From NCBI GenBank assembly GCA_963840275.1, contig CAWIYK010000006.1:193075-257074 (forward strand): a stretch of 64,000 nucleotides of DNA. Direction: 5' to 3'. The notes beneath the pieces were generated by a model that worked only from the letters and a program-made list of their open reading frames with translations, was not told the DNA's origin and did not search any database. Origin of the DNA: an uncultured Actinomycetota bacterium. GTDB lineage: Bacteria > Actinomycetota > Actinomycetes > Mycobacteriales > Pseudonocardiaceae. A program made the position numbers and the translations under genes. Each line of letters opens with the position of its first letter. The first letter of the stretch is position 1. This document shows, one piece after another, positions 47,067-64,000 of this stretch.

Positions 47067-47256
47067 GTGCCGATGATGACAGCCGAGTAGTCGATGTCGC
47101 GGCGCTCGTCACCTTCCTGCCAGGTCACCGCCGCCGCGGCGACGCGATTCGTTCTCGAGTTACTTGCTGCCAGTGACCGAGCAATCACAGGTATACCTGG
47201 TCAGGTGCCTATGGGCGCTGGGGTCGGAGAAGAGATGATCAAGGGGAAGATCACAC

Positions 47257-47904
47257 ATGCTCGCGACAGATCTGTGCCAAGCGAAACAATGCGACGCCTA
47301 TGAGGTCGACACCGGGCCTTCGCACCGCACTCAGGGGGGACAGCGCCTGTGCCGGCGATGTCTGACCCGCACGCGACGACTTCTCGCTGACCTGCCGGCG
47401 TTGTTCGACGCCTGTGCGCACGAGCTGTCGCCCCGCTCCAGGTCCAGCTACACGACCGAGCGGGTGGCCGGCACCGGCGTCCTGGGAATCGAACTGAAGG
47501 AGGACGCGCTCAACGCCCGCGCCTGGGTTCTCAACATTCTTCGGCTGTGGACCCGTCTGGTCGTCGACGAGCTCGGAGTCCCGTTCGAGGACGTGCCGTC
47601 GGTGTCGAACCTGGCCCGCTTCCTGGGCCGGCACGCCGACTGGCTCGCCAAGCACCCGGCGGCCGGTGACTTCGCCGACGAGCTCGTCGAGACGGCCGTG
47701 CGCGTACGGCGCGTGGTGGACGCGAACCCGGTGCGCCGCGTCGTGCTCGGCACGTGCGTCGATGCCGACTGCGGCGGGGTTCTGCTCGCGCACCTGCGCC
47801 AGCGGGACGAGCTGTTGCCCAGCGAGATCCGCTGTTCCGGCGAACACGGCTGGCGGCCCGACCAGTGGCTGCTCCTCGGCCGCCGGATCAAGGAGGCGTG
47901 CTGA
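47257..47904 (+). CDS. Cys-rich hypothetical protein (several CxxC-type pairs)
   Basis: ATG 47257 follows a lower-GC leader. Cys pairs include LCQAKQC, RLCRRC, CVDADC and IRCSGEHGW. It sits 1 nt upstream of the HTH gene. Confidence 0.55.
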   Translation: MLATDLCQAKQCDAYEVDTGPSHRTQGGQRLCRRCLTRTRRLLADLPALFDACAHELSPRSRSSYTTERVAGTGVLGIELKEDALNARAWVLNILRLWTRLVVDELGVPFEDVPSVSNLARFLGRHADWLAKHPAAGDFADELVETAVRVRRVVDANPVRRVVLGTCVDADCGGVLLAHLRQRDELLPSEIRCSGEHGWRPDQWLLLGRRIKEAC

Positions 47905-47905
47905 G

Positions 47906-48103
47906 ATGCCGGGTCGACGTGCTCCGCGCACCGTGCCGACCGCCGTGGCGGCCCTCGCCGTCGGCGTGTCCGAGACGACCATCAGGCAGTGGGTCTACCG
48001 GGGCAAGCTCACCAGGTACGGCACCCCACGCCACGCCGAGTTCGACATCGAGGAGCTGACCGCGCACGCCGAGCGGCTGCACGGCGGGTCGACGCGGTCC
48101 TAG
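47906..48103 (+). CDS. Excisionase/MerR-like small HTH protein
   Basis: 65 aa reading TAVAALAVGVSETTIRQWVYRGKLTRYGTPRHAEFDIEEL, the Xis-type helix-turn-helix pattern. Confidence 0.6.
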   Translation: MPGRRAPRTVPTAVAALAVGVSETTIRQWVYRGKLTRYGTPRHAEFDIEELTAHAERLHGGSTRS

Positions 48104-49506
48104 TAGGCGCGGGCCAGGTAGGCGATCAGGTCGGGCTCGTCGGTGGAGTCGGGCAGCGAGCCGTCGGGGCGTTCGATGCAACGCACGCTGAGGCCGTCGC
48201 CAAGGCGGCCCTCGGCCTCCTCGTCGCGGACGGCCTTGTACGCGATCCTGGCCCAGCCGGTGCGCCCGACCTCGGCGGCCTCGGCGAGCGTCGAGACGTC
48301 GAAGGTGTTGTCGTCGCGGTGGCGGGTGGCCTCGTCGAGGAGGCCGCGCTGGATCTCGTCCATCAGCCGCGCACACGTGTCGGCCACGGCACCGATAGGC
48401 ACGACGACCTTCTCTCCCGTGTCGCGACGGGCGAGGGTGACGTTGCCGCCCGCGACGTCGCGGGGACCGACCTCGACCCGCACCGGGACCCCGACCAGCT
48501 CCCAGTCGACGACCCGACGGCCGAACGACGTCGAGGTGTTCCGGTCGACGGTCGACCGGAGCCCGGCCGCACGCAGCTCGTCCTGCAGCCGGGTGACCGT
48601 CGCGTCGACCTCGGCGGTCTCCTTGATCGCCAGCACGACCACCTGGTCGGGAGCGATGGCGGGCGGCACCCGAAGACCGGCGTCGTCACCGTGGGTCATG
48701 ATCAGCGCGCCGACGAGCCGGGTGCTCGCGCCCCACGACGTCTGCCAGACGTGCTCGCGCGTGCCCTTGTCGGACAGGTAGGTGGTGTCGAACGCCTTCG
48801 CGAAGTTCTGCCCCAGCTCGTGGCTCGTCGCGGACTGCAGCGCCTTGCCGTCCCGCATCATCGCCTCGAGCGTGTAGGTGTTGATGGCGCCGGCGAACCG
48901 CTCCCGGTCGGTCTTGACGCCCACCCGCGCGGGGATCGCCAGCACGTCGCGCACCACCTCGAGGTACGGGGAGTTGGCGATCAGCCGGGCGAACTCGCGC
49001 GCCTCCGGCATCGTGGCGTGGCAGGTGTGCCCCTCCTGCCAGAGGAACTCCGAGGTACGCAGGAACAGCCGGGGCCGCATCTCCCACCGGACGACGTTGG
49101 CCCACTGGTTGATCAGCAGCGGCAGGTCCCGATAGCTCTGCACCCAGTCCGAGAAGCTCGCGTTGATGACGGTCTCGGAGGTCGGCCGGACGACGATCGG
49201 CTCGTCCAGCTCCTTGCCGCCACCCTGCGTGACCACGGCCAGCTCGGGGCTGAAGCCCTCGACGTGCTCGGCTTCCCTGCGCAGGTAGTCGTACGGGATG
49301 AACAGCGGGAAGTAGGCGTTGCGGACCCCCACCGCGCGGAAGCGCGTGTCCAGCTCACGCTGGATGTTCTCCCACAGCGCGTACCCGTTCGGCCGGATCA
49401 CCATCGTCCCGCGCACCGGCCCGTTGTCGGCGAGCTTCGCCTTGGCGACGACATCCTGGAACCACTGTGGAAAGTTCTCGCTCTGCGGAGTGAGCACGCT
49501 TGGCAT
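48100..49506 (-). CDS. proS: Proline--tRNA ligase, archaeal/eukaryote-like short form (no INS editing domain)
   Basis: 468 aa with FPQWFQDVVAKAKLAD...RGTMVIRPNGYALWE...RPTSETV...FLWQEGHT...SHELGQNFAKAF and a C-terminal ...YLARAY ending in Tyr. AGGAAGG lies upstream of the ATG. Confidence 0.95.
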   Translation of the reverse strand: MPSVLTPQSENFPQWFQDVVAKAKLADNGPVRGTMVIRPNGYALWENIQRELDTRFRAVGVRNAYFPLFIPYDYLRREAEHVEGFSPELAVVTQGGGKELDEPIVVRPTSETVINASFSDWVQSYRDLPLLINQWANVVRWEMRPRLFLRTSEFLWQEGHTCHATMPEAREFARLIANSPYLEVVRDVLAIPARVGVKTDRERFAGAINTYTLEAMMRDGKALQSATSHELGQNFAKAFDTTYLSDKGTREHVWQTSWGASTRLVGALIMTHGDDAGLRVPPAIAPDQVVVLAIKETAEVDATVTRLQDELRAAGLRSTVDRNTSTSFGRRVVDWELVGVPVRVEVGPRDVAGGNVTLARRDTGEKVVVPIGAVADTCARLMDEIQRGLLDEATRHRDDNTFDVSTLAEAAEVGRTGWARIAYKAVRDEEAEGRLGDGLSVRCIERPDGSLPDSTDEPDLIAYLARAY

Positions 49507-49568
49507 GGCCGAAGGCTACCTTCCTGTCCCGCACGGCCGTCATGCGCCTGTCACCCGGTGTCACCCGG

Positions 49569-51458
49569 TCAGCGCAGCGGCCAGCTGTCGAAGTGCCCCC
49601 TTGTGACCACGAGGACGTCGTCCTCTATCAGCTGCTCGACCGGTCGCCCGGACGCCGCCAGTCGCTTTGCGACGAGCTCGGCGTGCCGGTCGCGGGCGTC
49701 TCGCGGCAACGGAACGGAACCGACCTCGGCGAGCCGGACGGCGCCGGAACGGTCCCGGACCGACACGACCTGCCCGCGGTTCCACACGCTCGGCGAGAAC
49801 GGGACGTCGAGATAGCCGAGCTCGATCGCCCGTTCGACCGCGAGGCCGAAGTCGCCCTCCCCCGCTTTCAGCGCGGCGTCGAGGACGGCCCGTGCCTCCA
49901 CGGTGATCAGCTCCACCTCCTCCGCGACCCCCTCGATCTGCCGGGTCGAGCCCCGAGCGGCCGCCAGCGCCCCGCGGACGAGCTGCACGCTCTCCGCGTT
50001 CTCCTCGGCGGTCGGGATCCGCCGCGCCTCGACGTGCGTCTTGACCATCAGCCGCGTGGCGCCGCTGTGCCCGGCCGTCGTCGCGGAGCCCCGCAGCAGC
50101 TCCCTCGACTTGTCCTGGTCGGTGGGGAACGCGCCCATGTACTGGTGGAACACGGTGTGCACGGCGACGTCCGCGAAGGAGAAGTCGTCGAGGTACTGGC
50201 GGGCGACGGCACGCATCGCCTGTATCGCCGCGACGTCCTGGGCGTGGTTGCCCTGCTCGGCGTAGCCGAGGGACACCGACTTCACCCCGCCTTCCGCGGC
50301 CAGCAACGCTTCCAGCACGTTGGCCACCACCGCGACGAACGGCGGCACGAGGCTCGCCGTGAGCACGCCGAAGAACTCGCGGTCGATGACGTGGCCGAAC
50401 CGCTCGTGGTAGGACCCGGCCAGGCGGTCGACGTACCGCCACCGCGCGACCGACTGACGGGGCGCGTAGTCGCGGTAGTAGGGAAGGTTGTAGGTGATCG
50501 CCCCTCCCTCGAACGCGGCGACCCCGCCCGCGAACGAGATCTCCGCGAGCAGCCGCGGGTCTCTTGTGGAGTGACGGACCTGCATGGGCACGTCCCGGAA
50601 CTCACCGGTGATCGCGAGGAGGTCCGCCACGCCGTGGTTGACCATCGGATAACCGTTGAGTCCCTGTCCCGGGGTGCGCCGGGTGGCCAGCTCCTTCAGC
50701 GCGATCTCGACGTCCTCGTAGGCGTTGTTCCTGGTGAGGGAGTCGATCTGGAACGAGAGGACGTCGGCGCCCGCACGCCGCAGCTGGTGGAACAGCGAGC
50801 GCTGGTCGACCGCGTTCGGCACCCCGCAACGGGGATGGACCAGGGTGACGCCGTCCTCGTCGGCCGCCTGCTGGGCCGCGGCGAGCGTCGGCCGGGACGC
50901 CAGGGCGCTCGCCGCGCGCGCGAAGTCCTGTGCCTCCGCGCCGGTGTGCCACTGCATCAGGACTTCCTCGCGCTGCTCGGCGAACGGCGCGACGTCGACG
51001 TCGGGCGGGGCCGACCGCGCCGGTGCCGGCTGGTCGGCGACCGCGACCCCGGACGGGACGGCGTCGCCGAGGTCGTGCTCGAGGGCGGCCAGCACGGTCG
51101 GCAGCTCGACGAAGCCGTTGAAGACGCGCGTGAAGCCGAGCCGACCGAGGTCGGTCATCGCCTCGTCGTCCTTGGTCACGGAGGGGTTGCCGCCCAGGTA
51201 CCACACGCCGCCGTCGACTCCGAGCTCCGCCCGCATCGCCGGGAGGTCACGCAGGTAGTGCCAGGCGTGTCCGTCCATGTTGGACACGAGCACGGCGTCC
51301 GCGCCGACCGCGGCGGCACACACGTCGCCGACCGTGTTCTGCGTCGCCAGGTACCGGACCCGATAGCCGGCCCTGACCAGCATCCCGCGCAACACGATGA
51401 GCCCCACCGAGTGCGCGTCGCCGCCGACCCCGCACAGCACGATCGTCGGCGCACTCAC
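49569..51458 (-). CDS. Fused B12-dependent glutamate (methylaspartate) mutase-like protein, S-type domain plus E-type domain
   Basis: The N-terminal cobalamin domain has DxHxxG (GGDAHSVG) and YLGGN. The C-terminal part has GYPMVNHGV...MQVRHSTRDPRLLAEISFAGGVAAFEGGAITYNLPYYRDY, which is typical of the GlmE/MutE chain. The start is GTG 51458 (RBS GAGGGGAC) or TTG 51473. Confidence 0.85.
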   Translation of the reverse strand: MSAPTIVLCGVGGDAHSVGLIVLRGMLVRAGYRVRYLATQNTVGDVCAAAVGADAVLVSNMDGHAWHYLRDLPAMRAELGVDGGVWYLGGNPSVTKDDEAMTDLGRLGFTRVFNGFVELPTVLAALEHDLGDAVPSGVAVADQPAPARSAPPDVDVAPFAEQREEVLMQWHTGAEAQDFARAASALASRPTLAAAQQAADEDGVTLVHPRCGVPNAVDQRSLFHQLRRAGADVLSFQIDSLTRNNAYEDVEIALKELATRRTPGQGLNGYPMVNHGVADLLAITGEFRDVPMQVRHSTRDPRLLAEISFAGGVAAFEGGAITYNLPYYRDYAPRQSVARWRYVDRLAGSYHERFGHVIDREFFGVLTASLVPPFVAVVANVLEALLAAEGGVKSVSLGYAEQGNHAQDVAAIQAMRAVARQYLDDFSFADVAVHTVFHQYMGAFPTDQDKSRELLRGSATTAGHSGATRLMVKTHVEARRIPTAEENAESVQLVRGALAAARGSTRQIEGVAEEVELITVEARAVLDAALKAGEGDFGLAVERAIELGYLDVPFSPSVWNRGQVVSVRDRSGAVRLAEVGSVPLPRDARDRHAELVAKRLAASGRPVEQLIEDDVLVVTRGHFDSWPLR

Positions 51459-51469
51459 GACGTCCCCTC
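51454..51469. repeat. 16-nt direct repeat copy A (CTCACGACGTCCCCTC)
   Basis: It is identical to 51528-51543. On the coding strand it reads GAGGGGACGTCGTGAG, which is an RBS plus a GTGA start/stop overlap. Confidence 0.9.
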
Positions 51470-51527
51470 GCAAGCTCCGGGACGCCGCTCACGGTCGCCC
51501 TGTGACATTGGTTCGCTCGCAAGCTCG

Positions 51528-51543
51528 CTCACGACGTCCCCTC
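51528..51543. repeat. 16-nt direct repeat copy B (CTCACGACGTCCCCTC)
   Basis: See copy A. The flanking CTCGCAAGCTC is also duplicated, at 51467-51477 and 51516-51526. Confidence 0.9.
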
Positions 51544-52329
51544 CCGCGCCAGCAGCAGGGTGCGGCTCATCGGCGTCGGCTCCACAGTGGACACCGTCCG
51601 CCAGCCGTCGCGGCCGGCGTCCTCGTAGAGCAGCCGGGCGAGGCCGACCGGGGTTCGCGCCAGCACCGCGATGTCCGGTGGACCCGTCCGCGCGACCTGT
51701 TCGAGCACGGCTCGCTTGCCGGTCAGACCGTTCGCCAGGAACACCAGACCCACCTCCCGGTAGTCGAAGTGGCGGCCGTCGGCCGCGTGGGCGCGGACCG
51801 TCGTGCCCGGCCACGCGGCGCGGTGCCGGCTGAGGATCTTGTTCGCGAGACGCACGGTGACCGGGTCACGGTCGAGGGCGACGCCGCGGTCGGTCACCAC
51901 ACCGTGGTCGCCGAGCGCGATCATCGTCTCCGGGTACGCGCCACAGCCGACGACGACGGCCCGGTCGAAGGTCCGGCCGGCCAGCGTCGCCAGTTCGGCG
52001 CCGACCCCGGCGTAGCCCTCGGTGGCGAGCACGGACCCGCCCCGCTCGTGCGGATGCGACACGAGCCGGTCGCTCTGCACCCGCTCCATCTCGCGGATGT
52101 GCGCGGCCCACGGCACGGCAAGGGTCTGGCGCAGCCGGGAGAAGTCGACCGACGCCGTCACCGCACGCAGCGTCGGCTCGTCCCGCACGCTCGTCACCAC
52201 CCGCCACAGCTCGTCCATGACGTGCCGGGGCGCCGGCTGCCGCCCGTCGAGGGCGCACCGGTCGGCGAGGTCGTGGAGCGTCGCGATCAGCTCGGTCAGC
52301 TCCAGCGCGGGGCCGCTAGCGGTGCGCAT
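51529..52329 (-). CDS. SAM-binding-fold protein resembling nicotianamine synthase-like enzymes
   Basis: 266 aa from MRTASGPAL (cat at 52327-52329). It has a glycine-rich loop VVVGCGAYPET, an acidic beta-2 end VALDRD, and LVFLANGLTGK, which resembles the NAS signature VFLAALVGM..K. The family call comes from memory. Confidence 0.55.
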   Translation of the reverse strand: MRTASGPALELTELIATLHDLADRCALDGRQPAPRHVMDELWRVVTSVRDEPTLRAVTASVDFSRLRQTLAVPWAAHIREMERVQSDRLVSHPHERGGSVLATEGYAGVGAELATLAGRTFDRAVVVGCGAYPETMIALGDHGVVTDRGVALDRDPVTVRLANKILSRHRAAWPGTTVRAHAADGRHFDYREVGLVFLANGLTGKRAVLEQVARTGPPDIAVLARTPVGLARLLYEDAGRDGWRTVSTVEPTPMSRTLLLAREGTS

Positions 52330-53221
52330 GAGCCCCGCCCGTCGCCGACCGCACGCCGGGCCGTCCCGGCGCGAAGACCGCGTAGACACGCCGCAACCTG
52401 CGCTTCGAGTCGATCTCGGTGAACGGCAGCCGGCCGTGCAGGAAGCGCGCGTTGTTCCACACCAGCAGGTCGCCCCGCTCGAGCAGCACGGGGTGCTGGA
52501 ACGCCGGCGTCGCACACAGCTCGTCGAGCAGGTCCATCGCGGCGACGAGCCGGTCGGGCAGCTGCGCGCCCGCGGTGGTGTGGCCCAGCTCGATGTAGCG
52601 GCGCAGGTACCGCAGCTCGAACCGACCGTCCTGATCGGACAGGATCGCCTGTTTCCGCGTGGTGACCCCGGGTTGCTGCCCCTGGAGGTCGAAGTGGTGT
52701 GCCCGCCGCAGCTCGGCGAGGTGCCGGGGATCGTCGGCGCGCAGTGCCTCGCACAGCGCCGCGCCGTCGACCAGGACGGTCTCACCGCCGATGTCGGCCG
52801 AGGAGAGACCGAGCAGGACGGCGAAGTCCGGCGGCTGCGGCAGCAGGGTGCCGTCGGTGTGGAAACCGCCCGCGCGGCTCGTGCCGGAGTAGTGGCTGAC
52901 GGTCGCGGCCGAGGCACCCACCTCGACCGGGTACACGAGCTCCCCGGTGCGGTACTGCGGGACCGGCCGGCCGAGGGTGGTGACCAGGTTCCACGCGGCG
53001 GTGGTCAACGCGTGGTCGTCCATCCCGGCGGTGCCGAGCCGCAGCACCGCGTAGCCCGGCTCGCCGCGCACGAGGTCGAGCGCGGACGCGGCGAACGCGC
53101 GGAACTCGTCGCCGACGTCGGCCGGCGCGGTCGGCCACGCGTCCGGCGGTCGGCCGGCGGCGACCGTCCGCCCGGCCGCCTCGGCGGTGAGGGCGGCACT
53201 CATCGACAGAACAGCAGTCAT
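52316..53221 (-). CDS. TauD/TfdA-family Fe(II)/2-oxoglutarate-dependent oxygenase
   Basis: 301 aa from MTAVLSMS. The HxD facial triad is in GGFHTDG. The distal His/Arg is in WNNARFLHGRLPF. Confidence 0.85.
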   Translation of the reverse strand: MTAVLSMSAALTAEAAGRTVAAGRPPDAWPTAPADVGDEFRAFAASALDLVRGEPGYAVLRLGTAGMDDHALTTAAWNLVTTLGRPVPQYRTGELVYPVEVGASAATVSHYSGTSRAGGFHTDGTLLPQPPDFAVLLGLSSADIGGETVLVDGAALCEALRADDPRHLAELRRAHHFDLQGQQPGVTTRKQAILSDQDGRFELRYLRRYIELGHTTAGAQLPDRLVAAMDLLDELCATPAFQHPVLLERGDLLVWNNARFLHGRLPFTEIDSKRRLRRVYAVFAPGRPGVRSATGGAHAHR

Positions 53222-53241
53222 GCCGTTTCCTTTCTTGATCG

Positions 53242-54174
53242 TCACCGTCGCTCGGCGCCGGCGACGGCGAGCAACAAGCTGCCCGGACCGACGGGAGGAC
53301 TGACCGTCACGAACACGCACACGCCCGTCTCCGGCGCCAGGACCACCTCGACCTCGCGGCCGTGTGGGTCGAGGATCCGGCCGACGTGCTGTCCGGCCAC
53401 CACCTCCTGGCCCGGCTCGACGGCCGGCTCCCACCACCCCGTGGCGCCGGCGCGCAGCCAGCGGAACGTGGTCATGTGCCGCACCCGCGGCGGTGCCGGC
53501 ACGCTCGGGTCGGCCGGCAGGACACCGAGCCGGACGGCCACCCGGCGCAGGCCGAGCACGTGTGTCCCGACGGCCCGAGGGGTGACCACGCCGCAACCAC
53601 CCGCCTCCGCGATGAAGGCCGGGATGCCGGCGTCGGCCGCCGCGGCGCTGGTGCTGCCCCCGACGGTGCGCTCGTCGGCCGGCTGCGTGACGCAGATCGG
53701 CGCCCCGTACGCCTCGGCCAGGTCCCACGCGCGCTCGACGACGGGCGAGGAGTCGCACAGCGTGAACGGGCTCAGGTCCTCCGTCAGGTCGCCGGCGTGG
53801 ACATCGACGACGGCGTCGCTGTCGAGCACGAACCGCTCGAACACCAGGTCGGCCAGCCGCTCGCTGTACGTTCCCCGCGGCTCACCGGGAAAGCACCGGT
53901 TCAGGTTCTTGCCGTCGACCGGTGACACGAACGGACTGCGGGCACGGAAGGCCGCCACGTCGACCATCAGCACCGCACGGATCCGGCCGCGCACCACCCG
54001 TTCGTCCACGCCCGCCATGAACTCGCGGAGCGCGGCCATGGGGGTGTACTCGCACCCGTGCACCCCGGCGAGCAGGGTGAGGCTCGGTCCGTCCTCGGCG
54101 CCTCGCACCTCCGCGACGGGCAGCTCGTGCCCGGCGCCGAGCCACTCCGCGCGCGCGAAACCGTAAGTGGCCAC
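53242..54174 (-). CDS. Succinylglutamate desuccinylase/aspartoacylase (AstE/AspA, M14-like Zn) family deacylase
   Basis: The GTG start has GGAGGAGAA upstream. It carries LLAGVHGCEYTP (HxxE), NLNRCFPG and VVDVHAGD. Confidence 0.8.
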   Translation of the reverse strand: MATYGFARAEWLGAGHELPVAEVRGAEDGPSLTLLAGVHGCEYTPMAALREFMAGVDERVVRGRIRAVLMVDVAAFRARSPFVSPVDGKNLNRCFPGEPRGTYSERLADLVFERFVLDSDAVVDVHAGDLTEDLSPFTLCDSSPVVERAWDLAEAYGAPICVTQPADERTVGGSTSAAAADAGIPAFIAEAGGCGVVTPRAVGTHVLGLRRVAVRLGVLPADPSVPAPPRVRHMTTFRWLRAGATGWWEPAVEPGQEVVAGQHVGRILDPHGREVEVVLAPETGVCVFVTVSPPVGPGSLLLAVAGAERR

Positions 54175-54213
54175 GCGGCTTCTCCTCCGAGTCGTCGCCG
54201 CGCGGCCCTGTCC

Positions 54214-55212
54214 CTACCGCGTGGCTGCCCGCCGCAACGCCATCCCGGTGAGCAGTTCGAGAACCACCCGGTTGGCCAGCAGCGCGGTGATGTTCATCGG
54301 TTGGTCGTAGTGCGGCGACACCTCGACGATGTCCGCGCCGACCACCGGCAGCTCGGTGGCCAGCCGGCGGACGGAGTCCAGGAGCTGACGTGAGGTCAGG
54401 CCACCGGGCTCCGGCGTGCCGGTGCCCGGCGCCATCCCGGGGTCCACGACGTCGATGTCCACGGACAGGAAGACCCCGCGGGCCGGTTCCGGGCCGGACG
54501 TGGACGCGTGCGCCACGGCTTCGTCGACCACGATGTCGACCCCGCGCCGGTTCACCTCGTCCATGTAGTAGCTGCGCATGTCCCGCTCGCGCATCCAGGC
54601 GATGACGTCCGGCGGCGGCCAGTAGCCCCGGAGTCCGATTTGGACGAACCGGTGGCCGGGCACCATGCCCGACTCGATCAGCCGCCGCATCGGCGCGCCG
54701 TGTCCCATCATCTCGGCGCGCGAGTACTCCCCGGTGTCCGCGTGCGCGTCGAAGTGCACGAGCGCGACGGCGCCGGGGCCGTGGTGGCGCGCGACCGCGG
54801 TGGCGTTCGGGAGCGTGACGCTGTGGTCGCCGCCGAGGACGACCGGAATGCCGCCACGGGAGGTGATCTCGTACACGTACCGCTCGATCGACTCGAGCGA
54901 CGCCTCGATGTACCCGCGCACCATCGGGATGTCCCCGGCGTCGACCACCGGCATGGCGCGAAGCGGGTCGACGCCGGCCGACAGGTGCGGCCGCGAGCCG
55001 TCCGGTTCGAGGTAGTCCGCGTCGCGGATCGCCCTCGGCCCGAACCGGGCCCCCGGCCGGAAGCTCGTCCCCCAGTCGAACGGCGCGCCGATCACCACCA
55101 CGTCGCCGGCGGCGACCTCGTCCACCCGGCGGACCGGCACGCCGCAGAACGAGCCGCGGGAGCCGAACGGCTCCACGAACTGACCGTCGTACGGATCGAC
55201 GAATTCCGACAT
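54214..55212 (-). CDS. Arginase/agmatinase-family Mn ureohydrolase (guanidino-group hydrolase)
   Basis: All the signature motifs are present: VLGGDHSVT, HFDAHADT, SVDIDVVDP and GADIVEVSP. Confidence 0.9.
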   Translation of the reverse strand: MSEFVDPYDGQFVEPFGSRGSFCGVPVRRVDEVAAGDVVVIGAPFDWGTSFRPGARFGPRAIRDADYLEPDGSRPHLSAGVDPLRAMPVVDAGDIPMVRGYIEASLESIERYVYEITSRGGIPVVLGGDHSVTLPNATAVARHHGPGAVALVHFDAHADTGEYSRAEMMGHGAPMRRLIESGMVPGHRFVQIGLRGYWPPPDVIAWMRERDMRSYYMDEVNRRGVDIVVDEAVAHASTSGPEPARGVFLSVDIDVVDPGMAPGTGTPEPGGLTSRQLLDSVRRLATELPVVGADIVEVSPHYDQPMNITALLANRVVLELLTGMALRRAATR

Positions 55213-55247
55213 CCCCTGGTGCTCCGATCAGTTCGACTGCTGGCCGG

Positions 55248-58200
55248 TCATGCCGCGAGGTCACGCGGTTCGACGAGCTCGTCGAGCGCGGACCCCAGCA
55301 AGTCAAGATAGCGGGACGCCCACCCGCCGACCTGGTCCGCGGTGAACCGGTGCAGGTGGTACCAGAAGTTGAACCGGGGTTCGCCCTCCCAGATGTCGAT
55401 GATCAGGAACAGGCCGGCGATCTCGACCAGCGTCGGTGCGTCGAGCCCGGCCAGCTCCGGGTCGGACAGTGGCGCGAGGCACTCGAGCACCTCGACGCGT
55501 GGCCGCGCGGTGACTTCCTCGCGCTGGTAGTTGTTGAACATGATGAAGGGGTCGGTGAAGTACGTGTCCTCCGGCAGGTCGTCGAACGGGGGCACGTGCG
55601 TGACCAGGTCGACGGGCGGGTAGGCGCACCGCTCGTTGATGGCGGCGACCAGGCGGTTGCACAGCCTCGCCAGCTCGCCGACGGGACGGTCGGTGCTGGG
55701 CACCGAGATGGGGAACGGCGCCACGAACGGCCCGATGGTCCTGGCGAAGCGCTCGTCCGACCGCCCGGTCACGATGGTCCCGACCGTGACGTCCGGCCTA
55801 CCGCTCAGCTCGGCGACCAACCGCAGGTACACCGCGCACAGCAGGGCGAAAGGCGACACGTTCGCCTGCTGCGCGGCGTCCTGCAGGCGGGGCCACAGCT
55901 CGGCCCGCACCGGCGGGGTGAGCCGACCGGACCGATGGCCCTCGGTGGCCCGGCCGCCGGAATGGCCGGGCAGCAGCGTCCGGCCGGGTCCCGTGGCATG
56001 CAGGCCGGTGAAGAACGCCCGCTCGACGACGACGTCGCCGGCGAGATAGTCGGTCTGCCAGCGCACGAACTCGCCGTACTGCGTCGGCACGTCGGCCAGC
56101 GGCGGCTCCCCGGCCACCGCCCGCCGATAGCTCTCCCTGAGCTCGTCGACGAACACCGAGACGGACACGCCGTCGAACTCGAGGTGCTGGCTGGACAACA
56201 GGACGAGGAACCGTCCTTCGTCCAGCCGGACCGCGCGGATCGTCCACGGCACCGAGGTCGCCGGGTCCGGCATGTCCTCGCGGGCCGCCTGTCCGAGCTC
56301 GGCCAGCCGCTCGGCCCGGCCCGGCATCGGCAGGTCCGCGAGGTCGACGAACAGCACGTCGTCGGCCGGCAGTGCCTCCTCGACCGGCAGCAGGTGCGCG
56401 GCGTCCTCGTCGAAGCGACAGCGCAGCACGTCGTGGCGGCCGACCACGGTCGCGAGCGCGTCGCGAAACGCCGTGCGGTCCAACGCGGCCTCGAACATGA
56501 TCGGCGTGACGAGCTGGCCGTAGCCGATGCGTCGGAGCATCAGCCAGCGGCGCTGCTGGGTGGACAGCGGCAGCGTCTCCGACGTGGTCGTCGGTCGCGA
56601 CACCGGCTCGACCCCTGGCGCCGCACGCCGCGCCGAGGTCCGCCACCGGTCGGTCAGCACACCGGTGTCCAGGTACTCGGCGATCGCCGAGATGGACGGG
56701 TGCTGGAAGCAGAGCGTGGTCGGCAGCTGGCAGTCCAAAGTGGACTGGAGCCGGTTGCGGAGCTGGATCGCCGACAGCGAGTCCATGCCCAGCCGGACCA
56801 GGTGCTCGTCGTCCTCGGCGGCGGCCACGCCGAGCAGCTGTCCCGCCAGCTCCCGCACGTGGTCGAGGATCAGCTCACGACGAGGCTCCCCTGCCGCGCC
56901 GGCGATCCGGTCGCCGACGGTCTCCTCCTGGGGCGGTGCCGTCTCCTCGTCGGTGACCTCGGTGAAGAACGGATCGCCGTGCAGACCGTGCCAGCGCAGG
57001 AATGTCGGCCAGCGCGTCGGCAGGATCCCGACCTGGGCGGCGGTCCCGGCGAGCAGGTGGTCGAACGCGGCCGCGCCCTGGGACGCGGAGAAGGCGCCCA
57101 TGCCGCTGCGTTCGATCTGCGCCATCGTGCCGGCCTGGTCGGCGAGGAAGCCCGCGCCGGCCCAGGCGCCCCAGTTGACCGCGACCGCCGGCCTGCCGTT
57201 CGCGCGCCGGTGGTGGGCCAGTGCGTCGAGGAAGGTGTTCGCGGCCGCGTAGTTCGCCTGACCGGAGTTGCCCACGAGCGCGGTCGCCGAGGAGAAGTAC
57301 AGGCAGAAGTCGAGGTCGTGACCGCGCTCCCGGCACCACACGTGCAGGTTCCACGCGCCCTGGGCCTTCGGGGCGAACACCGGGCCGAACCGCGTCCAGT
57401 CGAGGCTGCGCAGCACGCCGTCGTCCAGGATCGCGGCCGTGTGCACCACTCCCCGCAGTGGCACGCCGAGTTCCGCGATCCGGTCGAACAGTCCGGCGAC
57501 CGCGCCCTGGTCGGCGATGTCGGCCCGCTCGACCACGACTCTCGTTCCCCGCGCGCGCATCCGGTCGAGGCGTTCGGCGACCTCCGCCGTCGGCGCGCCG
57601 CGGCCGACCAGCACCACCGTGCCGGCGCCGGCGGCGGAAAGGCGTTCCGCGGCGAGCACCCCGAGTCCGCGCACACCGCCGACCACGAGGTAGCACGCGT
57701 CGGCGCGCAGCCGTGCCGGCTGGTCGGCGGCCGGTGCCCGCACGAGGCGGCGCACGTGACGCACCCCGGCGCGCAGGGCCACCTCCCGCTCGCCACCGAC
57801 GCCGTCCAGCTCGCCGAGCAGCTCTGCCGCCCGCGCCGCCGGGTCGTCGACACCGTCGAGGTCGACCCGGACGAACGACAGCTCGGGGTGTTCCATCGCG
57901 GCGATCTTCGCGAGACCCCACAGTGGCGCCTGCGCGACACCGTCCGCCCGGTCGGACTCGCCGACCACGTGGACGTTGCTGGTGACGAGCACCAGCGCCG
58001 GTCGCGCGTCGTCGTCGCGCGCGGCGAGCGCCTTGACCAGCTCCACGACGCTGGCCGCACCGGTCGCCGCAGCCGCCACGACGCTGTCGGGCGCGGCGGC
58101 GAGCGCCGCGGTGCTGTCCGGGAGGGCCGGCGTCTCGAGGCTCCACAGGTGGACCACGCCCTCGATCGGGCCCGGGACGGTGTCGAGCAGCTCGCCCGCG

Positions 58201-61040
58201 AACCCCTCTTCCCTGCGCACGACCACGCACGGCCGGCCGTCGGAGCGGAGCCGGTCGGCCACGGCGTCCCCGATGCCGTACCGGTCGGCGAACACGATGA
58301 CCGTGCCCCGGGTCGGCTCCGCGTCGGGTCCCCGACGCGGGGCCGGCGCGGGTCGCCAGACCGGCTCGTGCACCAGGCTCCGCCAGTCCTCGGTCGGCCG
58401 TGGCGGCGCGGCCGGCTCGCGGTCCGGCGCGTCGATCCAGTAGCGCCGACGCTGGAACGGGTAGGTCGGCAGGTGGAGCCTGCGGCGCTGCTCCGGACCG
58501 GACACCGCCGCCCAGTCGATGTCGGCGCCGAGCTCGTAGAGCCGACCCAGCGCCGTGCCCAGCTCGGCCCAGTCGGGGCGGCCCGGCCGCAGGCTGGGCA
58601 GCCATGGCCCGGGATGGTCGGGAAGTACCGCGCCGGCCATCCCGAGGAGCACCGGCACGGAACCGATCTCCACGAACGCGTCGGCCCCGGCGGCGGCGAC
58701 CGAGCGGACACCCGTGGCGAAGCGCACCGGTTCGCGCAGCTGGCGCCGCCAGTACCCGCTGGTGCCGATCAGGTCGCCGATCAGCTCGCCGGTCACGTCC
58801 GACACGATCGGCGACCGGGGCGCGCCCATCGTGCAGAGGCCCACCTCGTGCTCGAACTCGTCGAGTACGCCGTCCACGTCCGGGGAGTGCCCGGCACCGC
58901 CGTAGCCGAGGTCCTTGACCTGGATCCCCCGAGCGTCCAGCCGGGCGCCGAGGTCGCGCAGCGCGTCCGCCCGGCCGGCGACCACGGTGTTCGCCGGCCC
59001 GTTCGACGCCGCCACGGACACCGCGCCCGCGTAGCGCGCGATCTCCTCCCCCGCGTCGTGTTCGCCGAGGCCGACGGCCATCATGGCGCCGCCGTCGGGC
59101 AGCGTGGACAGCAACCGGGCGCGGGTGGCGACGAGGTGCGCGCCGGTGGCGATGTCGAAGACCCCGGCCGCGCAGGCGGCGGCGAACTCGCCGAGGCTGT
59201 GGCCGAGCACCGCGGCCGGCTCGACACCCCACGACCGCCACAGTTCGACCAGGCCGAGCTGCACCGCGAACTGAGCGGGCTGCGCACGCGCCAGCCAGCT
59301 CGTCCGATCGCCTTCGTGCTCTCCCCCGTACAGCACCTCCGCCGCGGTCACGCCCAGCTCGTCCCGGTACACCGCCGAGCAGAGGTCGACGGTCTCGCGG
59401 AACACCGGTGACGTCCGGTACAGCGTCGCGCCGACGCCGGCGATGTCCGCCCGGTACCCGGTGAACAGCATGGCGACCCGCGGGGGCGTGAGATCCCCAC
59501 CGCCGGTCGACGGACGGCCGGCCAGCTCGGCCGCGGCCCGCCGCGGTGAGTCGGCGACCACCGCGGCGCGGTACTCGTGGTGGCGCCGACCGGTGTTCGC
59601 CGAGTTGGCGACGTCCGCGAGGTCCTGCTCCGGGTGGTCCACGAGGTGCTGGCGGTACCGGGCGGTGAGGTCCCGCAGCGCGGCCGGCGTGCGGGCGCTG
59701 AGCGTCAGCACCTGCCAGTCGCGCTCGGCGGCGGGCACCGCCGGGAGCGCCGGTGGTTCCTCGAGCACCACGTGGGCGTTGGTGCCGCCGAGCCCGAACG
59801 CGCTCACGCCGGCACGGCGCGGGGCGTCGACCGGGCTGGGCCAGTCCCGCAGGCTGGTGTTGACGAAGAACGGGGAGTCCGCGAACCCGATCCGCGGGTT
59901 CGGTTCGGTGAAGTGCAGGCTCGGCGGGAGCTGGCGGTGCCGGAGGGCGAACACCGCCTTGATCAGGCTGGCCATGCCGGCGGCCCAGCCGAGGTGCCCG
60001 ATGTTGGTCTTCACCGACCCGATGGCGCAGCTGGCGCCGGGCGCCGAGCCGAACGCCCTGGTGAGCGCCTCGATCTCGATCGGGTCGCCCAGGGCGGTGC
60101 CGGTGCCGTGCGTCTCGACGTAGCCGACCGTCTCCGCGGGCACCTCGGCGACCCGGAGGGCTTCGGCGACCACCGCCGCCTGACCGCTCACGCCGGGGGC
60201 GGTCATCCCGACCTTCCGGGCCCCGTCGTTGTTGACGGCCGTGCCCTTGATGACGGCGTAGACCGGGTCCCCGTCGGCCACCGCCTCGGCGAGCGGCTTC
60301 AGCGCCACGACCCCGACGCCGCTGCCGAACACCGTGCCGTCGGCACGTGCGTCGAAGGCACGGCAGTAGCCGTCCGACGAGAACACCATGCCGGACTCGT
60401 ACAGGTAGGAGGAGAGCTGGGGCACCGGGACGTTGGCCGCGCCGGCCAGCGCCAGGTCGCACTCGCCGGCGAGCAGGGCCTGGCACGCGAAGTGCACGGC
60501 GTACAGCGAGGTCGCGCAGGCCGCCTGGAGGTTCACGCTCGGGCCGCGGAGGTCGAGCTTGTAGGAGGTGCGGCTGGTGAGGAAGTCCTTGTCCGAGGCG
60601 ATCAGCAGCTGGAGCTCGGCCGTCGAGTCGAGCATCGTCCGGTCCGGCCGCCAGTCGTCGGCGTGCACGTTGTTGATGAGGTAGCTGCTCGGTCCGGTGC
60701 CGCCGTAGACGCCAACGGCCCCCGGATAGGCGCTGCCGTCGTACCCGGCGTCCTCCAGCGCCTCCCAGGAGCATTCGAGGAAGAGCCGGTGCTGCGGGTC
60801 GAGCCGCTCCGCCTCGCGCGTGCCGAAGCCGAAGAACTCGGCGTCGAACCCCTCGATGTCGGTGAGCAGGCCGCCGGCCCTGATCGCCCCGTCCGCACCG
60901 GACTCGTGCCGGGTGATCGAGTCGACGCCGTCCCGGACGTTGCGCCAGAACGCCGACGGATCGCCGGCCCCCGGGAAGCGACAGGCCATGCCGATGATCG
61001 CGATGTCGTTGTCCCGCACCGGCATCCCGGTCTCGTTCAT
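55248..61040 (-). CDS. Type I PKS module with terminal condensation domain (KS-AT-KR-ACP-C), 1930 aa
   Basis: Starts MNETGMPVRDNDIAIIGMACRFPG. The ATG overlaps the upstream stop (ATGA at 61037-61040). Domain motifs are listed in the sub-features. There is no DH, ER or TE. Confidence 0.95.
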   Translation of the reverse strand: MNETGMPVRDNDIAIIGMACRFPGAGDPSAFWRNVRDGVDSITRHESGADGAIRAGGLLTDIEGFDAEFFGFGTREAERLDPQHRLFLECSWEALEDAGYDGSAYPGAVGVYGGTGPSSYLINNVHADDWRPDRTMLDSTAELQLLIASDKDFLTSRTSYKLDLRGPSVNLQAACATSLYAVHFACQALLAGECDLALAGAANVPVPQLSSYLYESGMVFSSDGYCRAFDARADGTVFGSGVGVVALKPLAEAVADGDPVYAVIKGTAVNNDGARKVGMTAPGVSGQAAVVAEALRVAEVPAETVGYVETHGTGTALGDPIEIEALTRAFGSAPGASCAIGSVKTNIGHLGWAAGMASLIKAVFALRHRQLPPSLHFTEPNPRIGFADSPFFVNTSLRDWPSPVDAPRRAGVSAFGLGGTNAHVVLEEPPALPAVPAAERDWQVLTLSARTPAALRDLTARYRQHLVDHPEQDLADVANSANTGRRHHEYRAAVVADSPRRAAAELAGRPSTGGGDLTPPRVAMLFTGYRADIAGVGATLYRTSPVFRETVDLCSAVYRDELGVTAAEVLYGGEHEGDRTSWLARAQPAQFAVQLGLVELWRSWGVEPAAVLGHSLGEFAAACAAGVFDIATGAHLVATRARLLSTLPDGGAMMAVGLGEHDAGEEIARYAGAVSVAASNGPANTVVAGRADALRDLGARLDARGIQVKDLGYGGAGHSPDVDGVLDEFEHEVGLCTMGAPRSPIVSDVTGELIGDLIGTSGYWRRQLREPVRFATGVRSVAAAGADAFVEIGSVPVLLGMAGAVLPDHPGPWLPSLRPGRPDWAELGTALGRLYELGADIDWAAVSGPEQRRRLHLPTYPFQRRRYWIDAPDREPAAPPRPTEDWRSLVHEPVWRPAPAPRRGPDAEPTRGTVIVFADRYGIGDAVADRLRSDGRPCVVVRREEGFAGELLDTVPGPIEGVVHLWSLETPALPDSTAALAAAPDSVVAAAATGAASVVELVKALAARDDDARPALVLVTSNVHVVGESDRADGVAQAPLWGLAKIAAMEHPELSFVRVDLDGVDDPAARAAELLGELDGVGGEREVALRAGVRHVRRLVRAPAADQPARLRADACYLVVGGVRGLGVLAAERLSAAGAGTVVLVGRGAPTAEVAERLDRMRARGTRVVVERADIADQGAVAGLFDRIAELGVPLRGVVHTAAILDDGVLRSLDWTRFGPVFAPKAQGAWNLHVWCRERGHDLDFCLYFSSATALVGNSGQANYAAANTFLDALAHHRRANGRPAVAVNWGAWAGAGFLADQAGTMAQIERSGMGAFSASQGAAAFDHLLAGTAAQVGILPTRWPTFLRWHGLHGDPFFTEVTDEETAPPQEETVGDRIAGAAGEPRRELILDHVRELAGQLLGVAAAEDDEHLVRLGMDSLSAIQLRNRLQSTLDCQLPTTLCFQHPSISAIAEYLDTGVLTDRWRTSARRAAPGVEPVSRPTTTSETLPLSTQQRRWLMLRRIGYGQLVTPIMFEAALDRTAFRDALATVVGRHDVLRCRFDEDAAHLLPVEEALPADDVLFVDLADLPMPGRAERLAELGQAAREDMPDPATSVPWTIRAVRLDEGRFLVLLSSQHLEFDGVSVSVFVDELRESYRRAVAGEPPLADVPTQYGEFVRWQTDYLAGDVVVERAFFTGLHATGPGRTLLPGHSGGRATEGHRSGRLTPPVRAELWPRLQDAAQQANVSPFALLCAVYLRLVAELSGRPDVTVGTIVTGRSDERFARTIGPFVAPFPISVPSTDRPVGELARLCNRLVAAINERCAYPPVDLVTHVPPFDDLPEDTYFTDPFIMFNNYQREEVTARPRVEVLECLAPLSDPELAGLDAPTLVEIAGLFLIIDIWEGEPRFNFWYHLHRFTADQVGGWASRYLDLLGSALDELVEPRDLAA
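55266..56579 (-). other. C-terminal condensation domain (approx. residues 1488-1925)
   Basis: SSQHLEFDGVS is a variant of HHxxxDG that retains the second His. It is about 430 aa, the typical C-domain length. Confidence 0.75.
56661..56888 (-). other. ACP domain (approx. residues 1385-1460)
   Basis: LGMDSLSAIQL carries the phosphopantetheine Ser1421. Confidence 0.85.
57156..57698 (-). other. KR catalytic subdomain (approx. residues 1115-1295)
   Basis: The NADPH site is VVGGVRGLG. An LDD motif lies at 1205-1207. The catalytic residues are in SSATALVGNSGQANYAAAN. Confidence 0.85.
58461..59480 (-). other. AT domain (approx. residues 521-860)
   Basis: GHSLGE occupies residues 613-618. The specificity motif position reads GAGH (715-718) instead of HAFH or YASH. 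Confidence 0.85.
59751..61013 (-). other. KS domain (approx. residues 10-430)
   Basis: The active-site Cys is in QAACATSL (Cys175, codon 60516-60518). His residues are in ETHGTGT and KTNIGHL. Confidence 0.9.
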
Positions 61041-62944
61041 CCCGCCCGCCTCGTCTCGTCCTGCCTGGCCAGCAAGCGGGTCCGCCGATCCGGGCGCCGC
61101 AGCACCCGCCGGTCGCGACCGTCCGGGGCCGCGTCGGCTCCCGGCGCGTCGATCCGAGCCGCCAGCGACCGGACGGTCGGGTGCTCGAACAGGGCGACCG
61201 CCGGCAGCGTGGTCCCCATCCTGGTGGTCATCGTGGTGGTCAGCGCACGGTGGACGTAGGTGACGAGCAGCGAGCTGCCGCCCAGCTCGAAGAAGTTGTC
61301 GAGCACCCCGACCTCCCGCAGCCGCAACGCCTCCCGCCACACCTCGGCGACCGCGCGCTCGGTGTCGGTCGCGGGCGGCACCATGGGGGTGTCCAGGGTC
61401 GGGCGGTCGTTGGAGACGAGCGGCAGACCCGCGCGGTCGATCTTCCCGTTGGGCGACAACGGCATCTCCGCCACGCGCACGAAGCTCTGCGGCACCATGT
61501 ACTCCGGGAGCCGGTCCGCGAGGTAGGCGTGCCAGCTCGGCTCGAACAACCGGAACACGCCGTCCGCACGGTCCGCCCCGCCGAGGACGACGTAGGCGAC
61601 GAGACGTCGCTGTCCGGCCGCGTCCTCGTCGGTGAGCACCGCGCACTCGGTGACGTCGGGATGCTGTGCCAGCGCCGCCTCGACCTCACCCAGCTCGACC
61701 CGGTGCCCCCGGATCTTGACCTGGCGGTCGGTCCGGCCGAGGAACTCGAGCGCTCCCAGCCCGTCGTACCGGACCCGGTCGCCGGTGCGGTAGAGCCGGG
61801 CGCCGGTGGGGCCGGGCGCGAACCGCTCGTCGGTGAGGTCGGGCCGCCCGAGGTACCCGTCGGCGAGTCCCGGGCCACCGATGTAGAGCTGACCGGGCTG
61901 TCCCGGCGACACCGGGCGGCCCTCGTCGTCGAGCACGTGGGCGTCCACGTGCGGCAGCGGGGGGCCGATCGGGGGCAGGTCCGGCCAGTCCGCCGGCGGA
62001 CCGGTCAGCTCGTGCACGGTGACCACGTGCGTCTCGGTCGGCCCGTAGTGGTTGAAGAGCCGGCACCACGGCATGCGGGCGAACCAGTCGCGGATCGCGG
62101 GCGTGACGCGCAGCTGGTCGCCGAGCACCACCACGGTCCGCAGGTCGGGCAGGGGCGACTCGGCCGCCGCGGCCAGGACGGGCAGCAGCACGGTCGGCAC
62201 GAAGAACCGGCCGACCCGCTCGTCGGCGAGCAGGCGCAGCAACCCGTTCGCGTCGTGCCGCTGGCCCTCGTCGAGCAGCAACAGGGTGCCGCCGTTGCAC
62301 AGGGTGGAGTAGATCTCCTGCACCGACACGTCGAAGCTGATCGGCGCGAACTGGAGCGTGGTGACGCCGGTCTGCGGCCCGTCGGCGCTCCGGTGCCAGT
62401 CGACGAGCGTGCCGAAGGCGCCATGGCTCATGACGACGCCCTTGGGTGTTCCCGTCGAGCCGGAGGTGTAGATCAGGTACAGCGGGTCCCGCTGCCTCGG
62501 GTGCGGCGGCACTGCCGGGGCCGCGCCGTCCTCGCTCGCCACGAGGTCCTCGACGAGCAAGGTCGTCGGGCCGTCGCCGGCACTGTGCGCGGTGGCCGCG
62601 CGGCACGTGAGCACCGCACGCGCACCCGAGTCGGCCAGCATGAGCTTGCGGCGGACCTCCGGGTAGTCGGCGTCGAGCGGTAGGCACGCCGCGCCGGACC
62701 AGGCGATGCCGAGCAACCCGACGATCAGGTCGACGCCGCGCGGCATGCTCAGCGCCACCGGCTCCGACCCGAGACCGGCGCGACGCAAGCCCGCCGCCAC
62801 CCGCCCGGCGCGACGCACGAGCTCGCGATAGGTCACCTCGGTGGTGCCGTGGCGCAGTGCGACCACGTCCGGGTGTGCCCGCGCGACCTCGTCGATCATC
62901 CGCGGCAGCAGGCTCGGCGCCTCCCCCGGCGACCCGCCGCTCAC
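61037..62944 (-). CDS. Stand-alone NRPS loading didomain (A-T), 635 aa
   Basis: The GTG (cac at 62942-62944) overlaps the methyltransferase stop (GTGA). Core motifs are LIYTSGSTGTPKGV, FDVSVQE, NHYGPTE, YRTGD and GRTDRQVKIRG. The T domain has FFELGGSSLL. Confidence 0.9.
   Translation of the reverse strand: MSGGSPGEAPSLLPRMIDEVARAHPDVVALRHGTTEVTYRELVRRAGRVAAGLRRAGLGSEPVALSMPRGVDLIVGLLGIAWSGAACLPLDADYPEVRRKLMLADSGARAVLTCRAATAHSAGDGPTTLLVEDLVASEDGAAPAVPPHPRQRDPLYLIYTSGSTGTPKGVVMSHGAFGTLVDWHRSADGPQTGVTTLQFAPISFDVSVQEIYSTLCNGGTLLLLDEGQRHDANGLLRLLADERVGRFFVPTVLLPVLAAAAESPLPDLRTVVVLGDQLRVTPAIRDWFARMPWCRLFNHYGPTETHVVTVHELTGPPADWPDLPPIGPPLPHVDAHVLDDEGRPVSPGQPGQLYIGGPGLADGYLGRPDLTDERFAPGPTGARLYRTGDRVRYDGLGALEFLGRTDRQVKIRGHRVELGEVEAALAQHPDVTECAVLTDEDAAGQRRLVAYVVLGGADRADGVFRLFEPSWHAYLADRLPEYMVPQSFVRVAEMPLSPNGKIDRAGLPLVSNDRPTLDTPMVPPATDTERAVAEVWREALRLREVGVLDNFFELGGSSLLVTYVHRALTTTMTTRMGTTLPAVALFEHPTVRSLAARIDAPGADAAPDGRDRRVLRRPDRRTRLLARQDETRRAG
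61160..61363 (-). other. Thiolation (PCP) domain (approx. residues 528-595)
   Basis: The GGSS motif has its Ser557 codon at 61274-61276 and Ser558 as the likely carrier serine. Confidence 0.8.
61430..62911 (-). other. Adenylation domain (approx. residues 12-505)
   Basis: The specificity residues, read by eye against GrsA-PheA numbering, are D V Q F V L H V V K. Confidence 0.8.
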
Positions 62945-63987: not shown

Positions 63988-64000
63988 GGGAGTGGTCCCT

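Follow-up and report, generated by a model that had tools for sequence, protein, structure and literature searches.

What is a gene for an aminoacyl-tRNA synthetase (aaRS) doing at the end of a natural product cluster? The question is raised by a 64,000-nucleotide stretch of DNA from an uncultured member of the Pseudonocardiaceae (contig CAWIYK010000006.1, positions 193,075 to 257,074; hereafter the window), in which proS, a gene for a prolyl-tRNA synthetase (ProRS), is the last of an array encoding a hybrid nonribosomal peptide synthetase–polyketide synthase (NRPS-PKS). A sequence-only reading of the window had suggested that the pathway makes or uses a proline mimic, with a nicotianamine synthase (NAS)-type enzyme as a possible source of an azetidine ring, and that this ProRS protects the producer. 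The comparisons described here indicate that proS is a functional, conserved component of a family of small, proline-primed hybrid NRPS-PKS clusters. That it is the producer's self-resistance copy, providing target bypass against a proline-derived ProRS inhibitor, is given a probability of about one-half.

A Short-Form ProRS with an Intact Active Site

The proS open reading frame (ORF) is complete, running from ATG to ...ARAY* and encoding 468 residues. The protein scores 468.8 bits against the TIGR00408 proS_fam_I model (cutoff, 437) and only 85–112 bits against bacterial-type ProRS models (cutoffs, 307–558). Pfam recognizes tRNA-synt_2b (PF00587) and HGTP_anticodon (PF03129), and the closest solved structure is that of Thermus thermophilus ProRS (PDB 1H4Q/1HC7; E 1e-138), with which the architecture is shared over residues 5–420. 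E. coli ProS can be aligned only at residues 54–172 and 416–568; its middle third (173–415) has no counterpart, and the insertion (INS) domain is thus missing, as the sequence-only reading had described for a short form ending in ...ARAY.

Residues T111, E113, R142, T153, W158, E160, H162, F205, T228, H230, S258, W259, G260, and R264 (T. thermophilus numbering), which we take from the Thermus and human structures to be proline- and ATP-site positions, are identical in the window ProRS and in the four other cluster copies described below; of the site positions compared with the Thermus enzyme, nearly all match. Because the catalytic and proline-pocket residues are all kept, the window enzyme is predicted to be able to charge tRNAPro. 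One residue near the site, S225, is unique to the window protein (M or L in the family) and lies beside the conserved T227/H229.

The C-terminal end is less typical. Unlike the rest of the protein, the last ∼50 residues cannot be aligned to the Thermus enzyme, although the terminal Tyr is kept; the Pfam C-terminal ProRS domain was not found at E ≤ 0.001, and the TIGR00408 match ends at profile position 411 of 475. As in the window ProRS, PF03129 and PF00587 are the sole Pfam domains in all 120 homologues listed, and the unrecognizable end is, judged by domain content, a trait common to the whole actinobacterial short-form family. There is a single Cys in the last ∼50 residues, and the zinc site of Thermus ProRS appears to be absent. 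The G+C content at third codon positions (GC3) is 0.94 for proS, matching the cluster genes, and 0.85 for the genes downstream.

ProRS Accompanies a Family of Homologous Clusters

Within the window, proS lies on the same strand as the cluster genes, which are separated by gaps of ≤70 nt and overlap at three junctions (Table 1). The arrangement is operon-like, and proS appears to be transcribed together with the biosynthetic genes.

A genome scan with the fused glutamate mutase gene (GlmSE) found homologous clusters in Streptomyces sp. NPDC126499 (locus L007) and Kitasatospora kazusensis (L008), whose ProRS proteins are each 60% identical to that of the window. Two others, in a Streptosporangiaceae metagenome-assembled genome (MAG; L018, L019, and L029) and a Pseudonocardia MAG (L021 and L022), were reached through the closest ProRS homologues, with 74%–75% identity. 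ProRS therefore accompanies the homologous cluster in five organisms, the window included, and does so in three gene orders. The window ends in ...TauD-NAS-GlmSE-ProRS. Both MAGs have the order Blac-TauD-A-T-PKS-GlmSE-ProRS (Blac, β-lactamase-fold hydrolase; A-T, adenylation-thiolation), with the mutase directly before ProRS (L018/L019 and L021/L022), as in the window, and a mutase–ProRS spacer of 58 nt. The K. kazusensis cluster closes with ...Blac-arginase-ProRS, proS following an arginase-family gene. L007 reads PKS-rSAM-regulator-ProRS-...-AstE-NAS-GlmSE (rSAM, radical S-adenosylmethionine enzyme), so that ProRS stands between a regulator and a deacylase with cluster genes on both sides. 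Downstream of proS nothing is shared between the window, L018, and L021, which makes proS the conserved edge of the cluster.

The six-gene operon of the Streptosporangiaceae MAG is the minimal version. Its surroundings were read from L029 (1–6200) and L018 (11500–21400): upstream it is bounded by NUDIX, Replic_Relax, and large serine recombinase genes and downstream by DUF397, DUF2637, and DUF5131 genes. The operon, ProRS included, thus appears to be carried by a mobile element of the integrative or conjugative kind, where a housekeeping gene present only once would hardly be expected. Neither a NAS-like gene nor a Fem-like gene is present in ∼6.5 kb upstream and ∼10 kb downstream of this operon.

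The history of ProRS differs from that of the cluster core. A neighbor-joining tree splits the cluster copies between two subclades, each of which also holds noncluster relatives. The window core is closer to L008 than to L018 (A-T, 50% versus 41% identity; PKS, 51% versus 43%; GlmSE, 57% versus 53%; TauD, 51% versus 46%), whereas for ProRS the relation is reversed (60% to L008, 74% to L018). This disagreement implies that a ProRS of the short type was recruited or replaced more than once in the cluster family, which in turn would point to selection for having a ProRS in the cluster.

Outside clusters, the same ProRS family occurs as DUF4097-ProRS in Crossiella (C. equi) and Allokutzneria, as MFS-proS-DUF2993 in Streptomyces sp. 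SAT1, and in Embleya and Pseudofrankia. The sequence-only reading had considered that proS might occupy the same locus in relatives lacking the cluster; in these relatives it stands in other contexts. In one actinobacterial MAG of the same study series as the window, a short-form ProRS gene (L031, 7001–8413) is found between ffh and rpsP-KH-rimM-trmD-rplS, and the short form is probably the housekeeping enzyme in some lineages. The earlier statement that actinobacteria normally carry the long bacterial form therefore needs to be weakened: the short type is widespread in Actinomycetota and has a housekeeping neighborhood in at least one lineage. Among 46 Streptomyces/Kitasatospora genomes, 42 bacterial-type and 34 archaeal/eukaryotic-type ProRS genes have been counted (PMC10404621), so that the short form is commonly a second copy in Streptomycetaceae. 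No bacterial-type proS is present in the 64-kb window and its ±10 kb flanks. None of the Embleya records carrying the short form was among the 60 bacterial-type matches listed in large "plasmid" records (there were 7 more records).

Proline-Type Codes of the Loading Proteins

Re-extraction of the A-domain code of the window loader gave DVQFVLHVVK, in agreement with the sequence-only reading, which had called it proline-like. L008, L018, and L021 carry DVQFIAHVVK and L016, from S. virginiae, carries DVQFVAHVVK, both of which we take to be proline codes. The window code differs from the other loaders at one pocket position, A to L. The L007 locus stops short of the A-T gene, and the decoded loaders are those of the window, L008, L018, L021, and L016. 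All of them carry a proline-type code, which supports a predicted link of the pathway to proline.

Proposed Self-Resistance and Alternative Roles

Cluster membership, a proline-type loading code, an intact catalytic site, and an operon-like arrangement are features of the DNA itself; what we infer is that an inhibitor exists, that ProRS is its target, and that the cluster copy is insensitive to it. In the proposed scheme, L-proline would be loaded by the stand-alone A-T protein and extended by the KS-AT-KR-ACP module by one reduced C2 unit. The fused mutase would supply 3-methylaspartate, and the TauD oxygenase and β-lactamase-fold hydrolase would supply or tailor further parts, as would the NAS-like, deacylase, ureohydrolase, and β-methylarginine enzymes in the window. 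The proline-derived product, or a warhead released from it, would inhibit prolyl-tRNA synthetase, and the co-transcribed archaeal/eukaryote-like ProRS would keep the tRNAPro of the producer charged. Such target bypass would resemble the second IleRS, ThrRS, TrpRS, SerRS, or LeuRS copies of other producers. Resistance to an inhibitor fits better than protection from misincorporation, because the housekeeping enzyme would still mischarge an analogue with an extra ProRS present.

Several observations weigh against self-resistance. No substitutions are common to the cluster-linked ProRS copies and absent from noncluster relatives; the differences track phylogeny, and an alignment search for convergent, resistance-type substitutions in the cluster copies likewise found none. 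Resistance would then have to belong to the whole short-form type. No ProRS is encoded at ≤10 kb from the NAS-like gene of S. tibetensis (L015) or S. virginiae (L016/L017), a range that stops short of the far ends of these clusters. FemAB-like tRNA-dependent ligases in some related clusters keep a supply role open, and neither the product nor a ProRS-inhibiting natural product of such kind was found in the literature searched. If the archaeal/eukaryote-like form were by its nature insensitive to an inhibitor of the bacterial-type enzyme, in the manner of IleRS2 and mupirocin, the cluster copies would need no special substitutions. A bolder version, that a mobile cluster family makes an unseen class of proline-derived ProRS inhibitors and that the intrinsically insensitive short-form ProRS, widespread as a second copy in Streptomycetaceae and other actinomycetes, is at least in part a circulating resistance determinant, is put forward tentatively, as possible but doubtful.

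A first alternative is biosynthetic supply, in which the cluster ProRS would make Pro-tRNAPro, or charge a dedicated substrate, for a tRNA-dependent amide-forming enzyme. VlmL is cited as the precedent for valanimycin and AcmD for ascamycin. FemAB_like genes do occur in the K. kazusensis (two copies) and S. virginiae clusters, and the window ProRS looks fully competent for tRNA charging. More generally, aaRS copies can feed tRNA-dependent tailoring, at times alongside resistance (PMC12945691). The minimal operon, however, has a ProRS and no Fem-like gene in the flanks given above, and L007 keeps its ProRS with ATP-grasp ligases and no FemAB-like gene in the visible sequence. Moreover, the pathway has its own A-T protein to activate proline, and a housekeeping ProRS would normally give enough Pro-tRNA. 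A supply role is considered unlikely.

The second alternative retains the proline mimic of the sequence-only reading. The free analogue made by the pathway would be azetidine-2-carboxylate, formed by the NAS-like enzyme, or else a methylated or hydroxylated proline, and a more discriminating ProRS would prevent its misincorporation. Its starting point, a NAS-type SAM enzyme, proved to be real and is the 266-residue protein of Table 1. A profile of three orthologues matched CntL (E 1.9e-6) and MtNAS (E 2.6e-5) in the PDB, and an AlphaFold2 model (pLDDT, the predicted local distance difference test score, of 87) gave CntL as a Foldseek match with E 6.7e-15 and a template modeling (TM) score of 0.68, and MtNAS with a TM score of 0.69; the next fold class was weaker by about six orders of magnitude in E. 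E82, which all six homologues share, aligns with the glutamate in the VKQVEVIR segment of CntL. By our count, and with room left for an expression tag, this CntL glutamate would correspond to E84 of PDB 7c9k or to a residue close by. A search with the 266-residue protein alone returned only itself, so that the three-sequence profile was needed, and the first metagenome scan with this profile gave no match. The 348-residue methyltransferase was also considered as the NAS-type enzyme and was ruled out as a 2-ketoarginine methyltransferase.

The step from this enzyme to an azetidine is where the proposal lacks support. Although the fold and the aligned glutamate are shared with CntL and archaeal NAS, the identity is only ∼16% and nothing points to azetidine ring formation; aminobutyrate transferases head the matches. 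The PDB matches with E ≤ 1 and the top 50 fold matches include none whose description is that of an azetidine-2-carboxylate synthase (AzeJ/VioH type), in libraries whose content of such enzymes is unconfirmed. The NAS/CntL-like enzyme is found in the window, L007, L008, L015, and L016, and the A-to-L change in the window loading code, the unique S225, and β-methylarginine and ureohydrolase genes that could in principle lead to methyl-ornithine or methyl-proline would all suit an analogue. Set against these, the minimal operon retains ProRS with no NAS-like gene in its examined flanks, the other decoded loaders carry DVQFIAHVVK or DVQFVAHVVK, and an added discriminating ProRS would leave the resident enzyme free to mischarge. 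An analogue is rather improbable; of the earlier self-resistance idea, the conserved cluster gene and the proline-type loading stand and the azetidine route is not supported.

A third role that might be envisaged is metabolic buffering, in which the pathway drains the proline pool and an extra co-expressed ProRS sustains translation, with no inhibitor involved. Proline as the starter unit, the apparent co-transcription of proS with the biosynthetic genes, and the lack of resistance-type substitutions would agree with it. We know of no precedent among the many proline-using NRPS clusters, however, and the repeated recruitment of ProRS and its carriage on a six-gene mobile element would be left unexplained, so that little probability is attached to this role. 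Lastly, an ordinary housekeeping or second ProRS adjoining the cluster by chance could be argued from the members of the family outside clusters in Crossiella, Allokutzneria, SAT1, and Pseudofrankia and from the MAG with ProRS between ffh and rpsP-rimM-trmD-rplS, but chance adjacency is contradicted by the comparative data and, on these, excluded: in four further organisms, three gene orders, and two ProRS subclades the gene lies within the homologous cluster or at its border, and the downstream flanks differ in every case.

Relation to Known Systems

Examples of cluster-encoded aaRS resistance are MupM/IleRS for mupirocin, BorO/ThrRS for borrelidin, the TrpRS of the indolmycin producer, and SerRS2 for albomycin. 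AcmD/AlaRS (ascamycin) and SbzA/IleRS (SB-203208) are documented as cluster-encoded resistance genes (PMC12945691), as is the ThrRS of the vibriomycin cluster (PMC13515044). The window proS resembles these in being a complete aaRS gene embedded in and co-conserved with a cluster, on the same strand and in an operon-like arrangement, and in that the amino acid handled matches a building block of the pathway. It differs in amino acid specificity, in lacking diagnostic substitutions relative to noncluster relatives, and in being known from sequence alone. Neither a cluster-encoded ProRS nor a bacterial natural product targeting ProRS was found in the searchable literature, where reviews give Ala-, Ile-, and Thr-specific examples. 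The cluster-encoded ProRS joins a known kind of cluster aaRS, and its comparative occurrence across clusters is a new result.

A second comparison is with IleRS. Eukaryote-like IleRS2, found beside bacterial IleRS1, has low sensitivity to mupirocin (PMC4861432). Here too bacteria hold two deeply divergent forms of one synthetase, of which the "foreign" form could be intrinsically insensitive; for ProRS, unlike IleRS, a differential inhibitor sensitivity of the two types is conjecture by analogy. If it were true, the short-form ProRS would be to its inhibitors what IleRS2 is to mupirocin, and a testable reason would be offered for why many actinomycetes keep two unrelated ProRS forms. A third relative is ProRSx, a bacterial-type-derived paralogue of Streptomyces and Kitasatospora that lies beside a special tRNA (tRNAProX) and murG and serves mistranslation (PMC10404621). 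The window ProRS would likewise be an accessory paralogue, ProRSx being sporadic in Streptomycetaceae, but it lies inside an NRPS-PKS cluster, is of type I rather than bacterial type, and has no adjacent tRNAProX, Rfam finding no tRNA in the window; its identification as ProRSx was ruled out.

For target-directed genome mining, a small and partly mobile proline-primed cluster that keeps a ProRS is a textbook lead. The enzyme has been validated as a drug target, on which halofuginone and newer antimalarial and antifibrotic leads act. Culturable carriers of the cluster are at hand (K. kazusensis JCM 14560, Streptomyces sp. NPDC126499, and S. virginiae), and the minimal six-gene operon is small enough for heterologous expression.

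The Mutase–proS Junction and the Gene Array

Table 1. Features of the proS-Containing Array in the Window
Feature	Position	Strand	Evidence or remark
Convergent HTH_17-like ORF	47909..48103	+	PF12728 E 6.4e-4, below Pfam cutoff; marks cluster edge
proS, 468-aa archaeal/eukaryote-like (type I) prolyl-tRNA synthetase	48100..49506	−	Last gene of array; TIGR00408, PDB match, site residues, GC3
Mutase–proS spacer, 62 nt	49507..49568	−	Tandem CCGGGTGACA x2 at 49549-49568; GGAAGG 12 nt before ATG
Fused S+E glutamate (methylaspartate) mutase (GlmSE)	49569..51458	−	PF06368 1.4e-128 and B12-binding domain; TIGR01503 413.9 bits (cutoff 390.1)
NAS/CntL-like SAM-dependent aminobutyrate transferase, 266 aa	51529..52329	−	Profile versus PDB; AlphaFold2 model and Foldseek; orthologues carry PF03059
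TauD-family Fe/2-oxoglutarate oxygenase	52316..53221	−	PF02668 2.1e-31; kept in all related clusters
AstE/AspA-like zinc deacylase	53242..54174	−	PF24827 1e-25; orthologues in L007, L008, L016
Arginase-family ureohydrolase (agmatinase-like)	54214..55212	−	PF00491 2.3e-85; TIGR01230 196.5 bits (cutoff 174.3)
PKS-NRPS module KS-AT-KR-ACP-C	55248..61040	−	Pfam domains; translation from 61040 begins MNETGMP; ATG overlaps A-T stop (ATGA)
Stand-alone loading A-T didomain, code DVQFVLHVVK	61037..62944	−	AMP-binding, AMP-binding_C, PP-binding; start per L004 gene call
2-Ketoarginine 3-methyltransferase, 348 aa	62941..63987	−	TIGR04543 446.3 bits (cutoff 425); PDB 8r4z (MrsA) E 3.6e-85

The position of proS as the last gene of the array, 62 nt past the mutase, was reproduced, the mutase stop codon beginning at 49569 and the proS ATG at 49506. 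The gap holds the direct repeat and ribosome-binding site reported before. CCGGGTGACA is present exactly twice in the window, as the tandem; since at least two matches somewhere were reached in 9 of 100 shuffles, only the tandem arrangement is notable. The repeat is not kept in two related clusters (L018 and L021). Directly 5′ of the proS ATG, GTAnCCTTCGGC (window 49507–49530; ∼9975–10000 in L018 and L021) is kept in three clusters, the rest of the spacer having diverged, and may be a translation-initiation element. The absence of a hairpin from the gap was borne out: there is no terminator-like hairpin in 47800–49800, and the spacer shows no significant structure (fold z = −0.32). No same-strand terminator-like site lies in 47000–64000, where the sole hit falls within the mutase gene but on the other strand. 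Beyond proS, the small HTH_17 (excisionase-like) ORF converges on it and overlaps its stop by four bases; the 215-residue ORF preceding this one has no family match.

At the other end the array extends past the window. L004, a short Logan contig, adds an aminotransferase, a PhyH oxygenase, a β-lactamase-fold hydrolase, and an alcohol-dehydrogenase-like gene. The 2-ketoarginine methyltransferase gene (2794–3813 in L004) adjoins that for the HisC-like aminotransferase, the two making up a β-methylarginine branch. No such branch was seen in the sequenced portions of L007, L008, L016, and L018, and it is specific to the window version of the cluster.

The tailoring genes of the related clusters vary. 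Those of L007 encode an AsnA-type asparagine synthetase, a B12-radical SAM enzyme, four ATP-grasp ligases, and an MFS pump (20602–21615 and 90–2288), and those of K. kazusensis include a formyltransferase-like gene and a pair of FemAB-like ones (L008, 12818–16048). The asparagine synthetase gene of L007 was considered as a truncated class II aaRS-like tRNA ligase, and this was ruled out. The peptide ligases of K. kazusensis and S. virginiae are thus of the FemAB-like type, whereas L007 and S. tibetensis each have four ATP-grasp ligases together with an MFS transporter. It is speculation, compatible with this variation, that one warhead is carried on different peptide handles.

Two other associations came to light. 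A ProRS homologue with 75% identity (L027, 3–7979) divergently adjoins genes for an MFS transporter and for a large acyl-AMP-ligase/PKS hybrid of another sort, and a methyltransferase gene that overlaps it comes next; it may represent a second type of ProRS-associated cluster. A ProRS gene beside an NRPS on pSALBX2 of S. albogriseolus was treated as unrelated, its two decoded A-domain codes not being proline-like.

Within the window, ARAGORN reports a single tRNA, a 94-nt tRNA-Pro(cgg) at 62461–62554 (+), antisense in the A-domain gene. Given the Rfam result, this is almost certainly a false positive and should not be read as a partner of the ProRS. The spacer between the NAS-like and mutase genes (51459–51528) is 70 nt long in the window, and the ENA assembly of the same sequence (L001, 7905–8048) has an exact 74-nt tandem duplication there. 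The duplicated unit is bounded by GAGGGGACGTCGTGAG, which holds a ribosome-binding site and the GTG start context, and the duplication is either an assembly difference or population heterogeneity.

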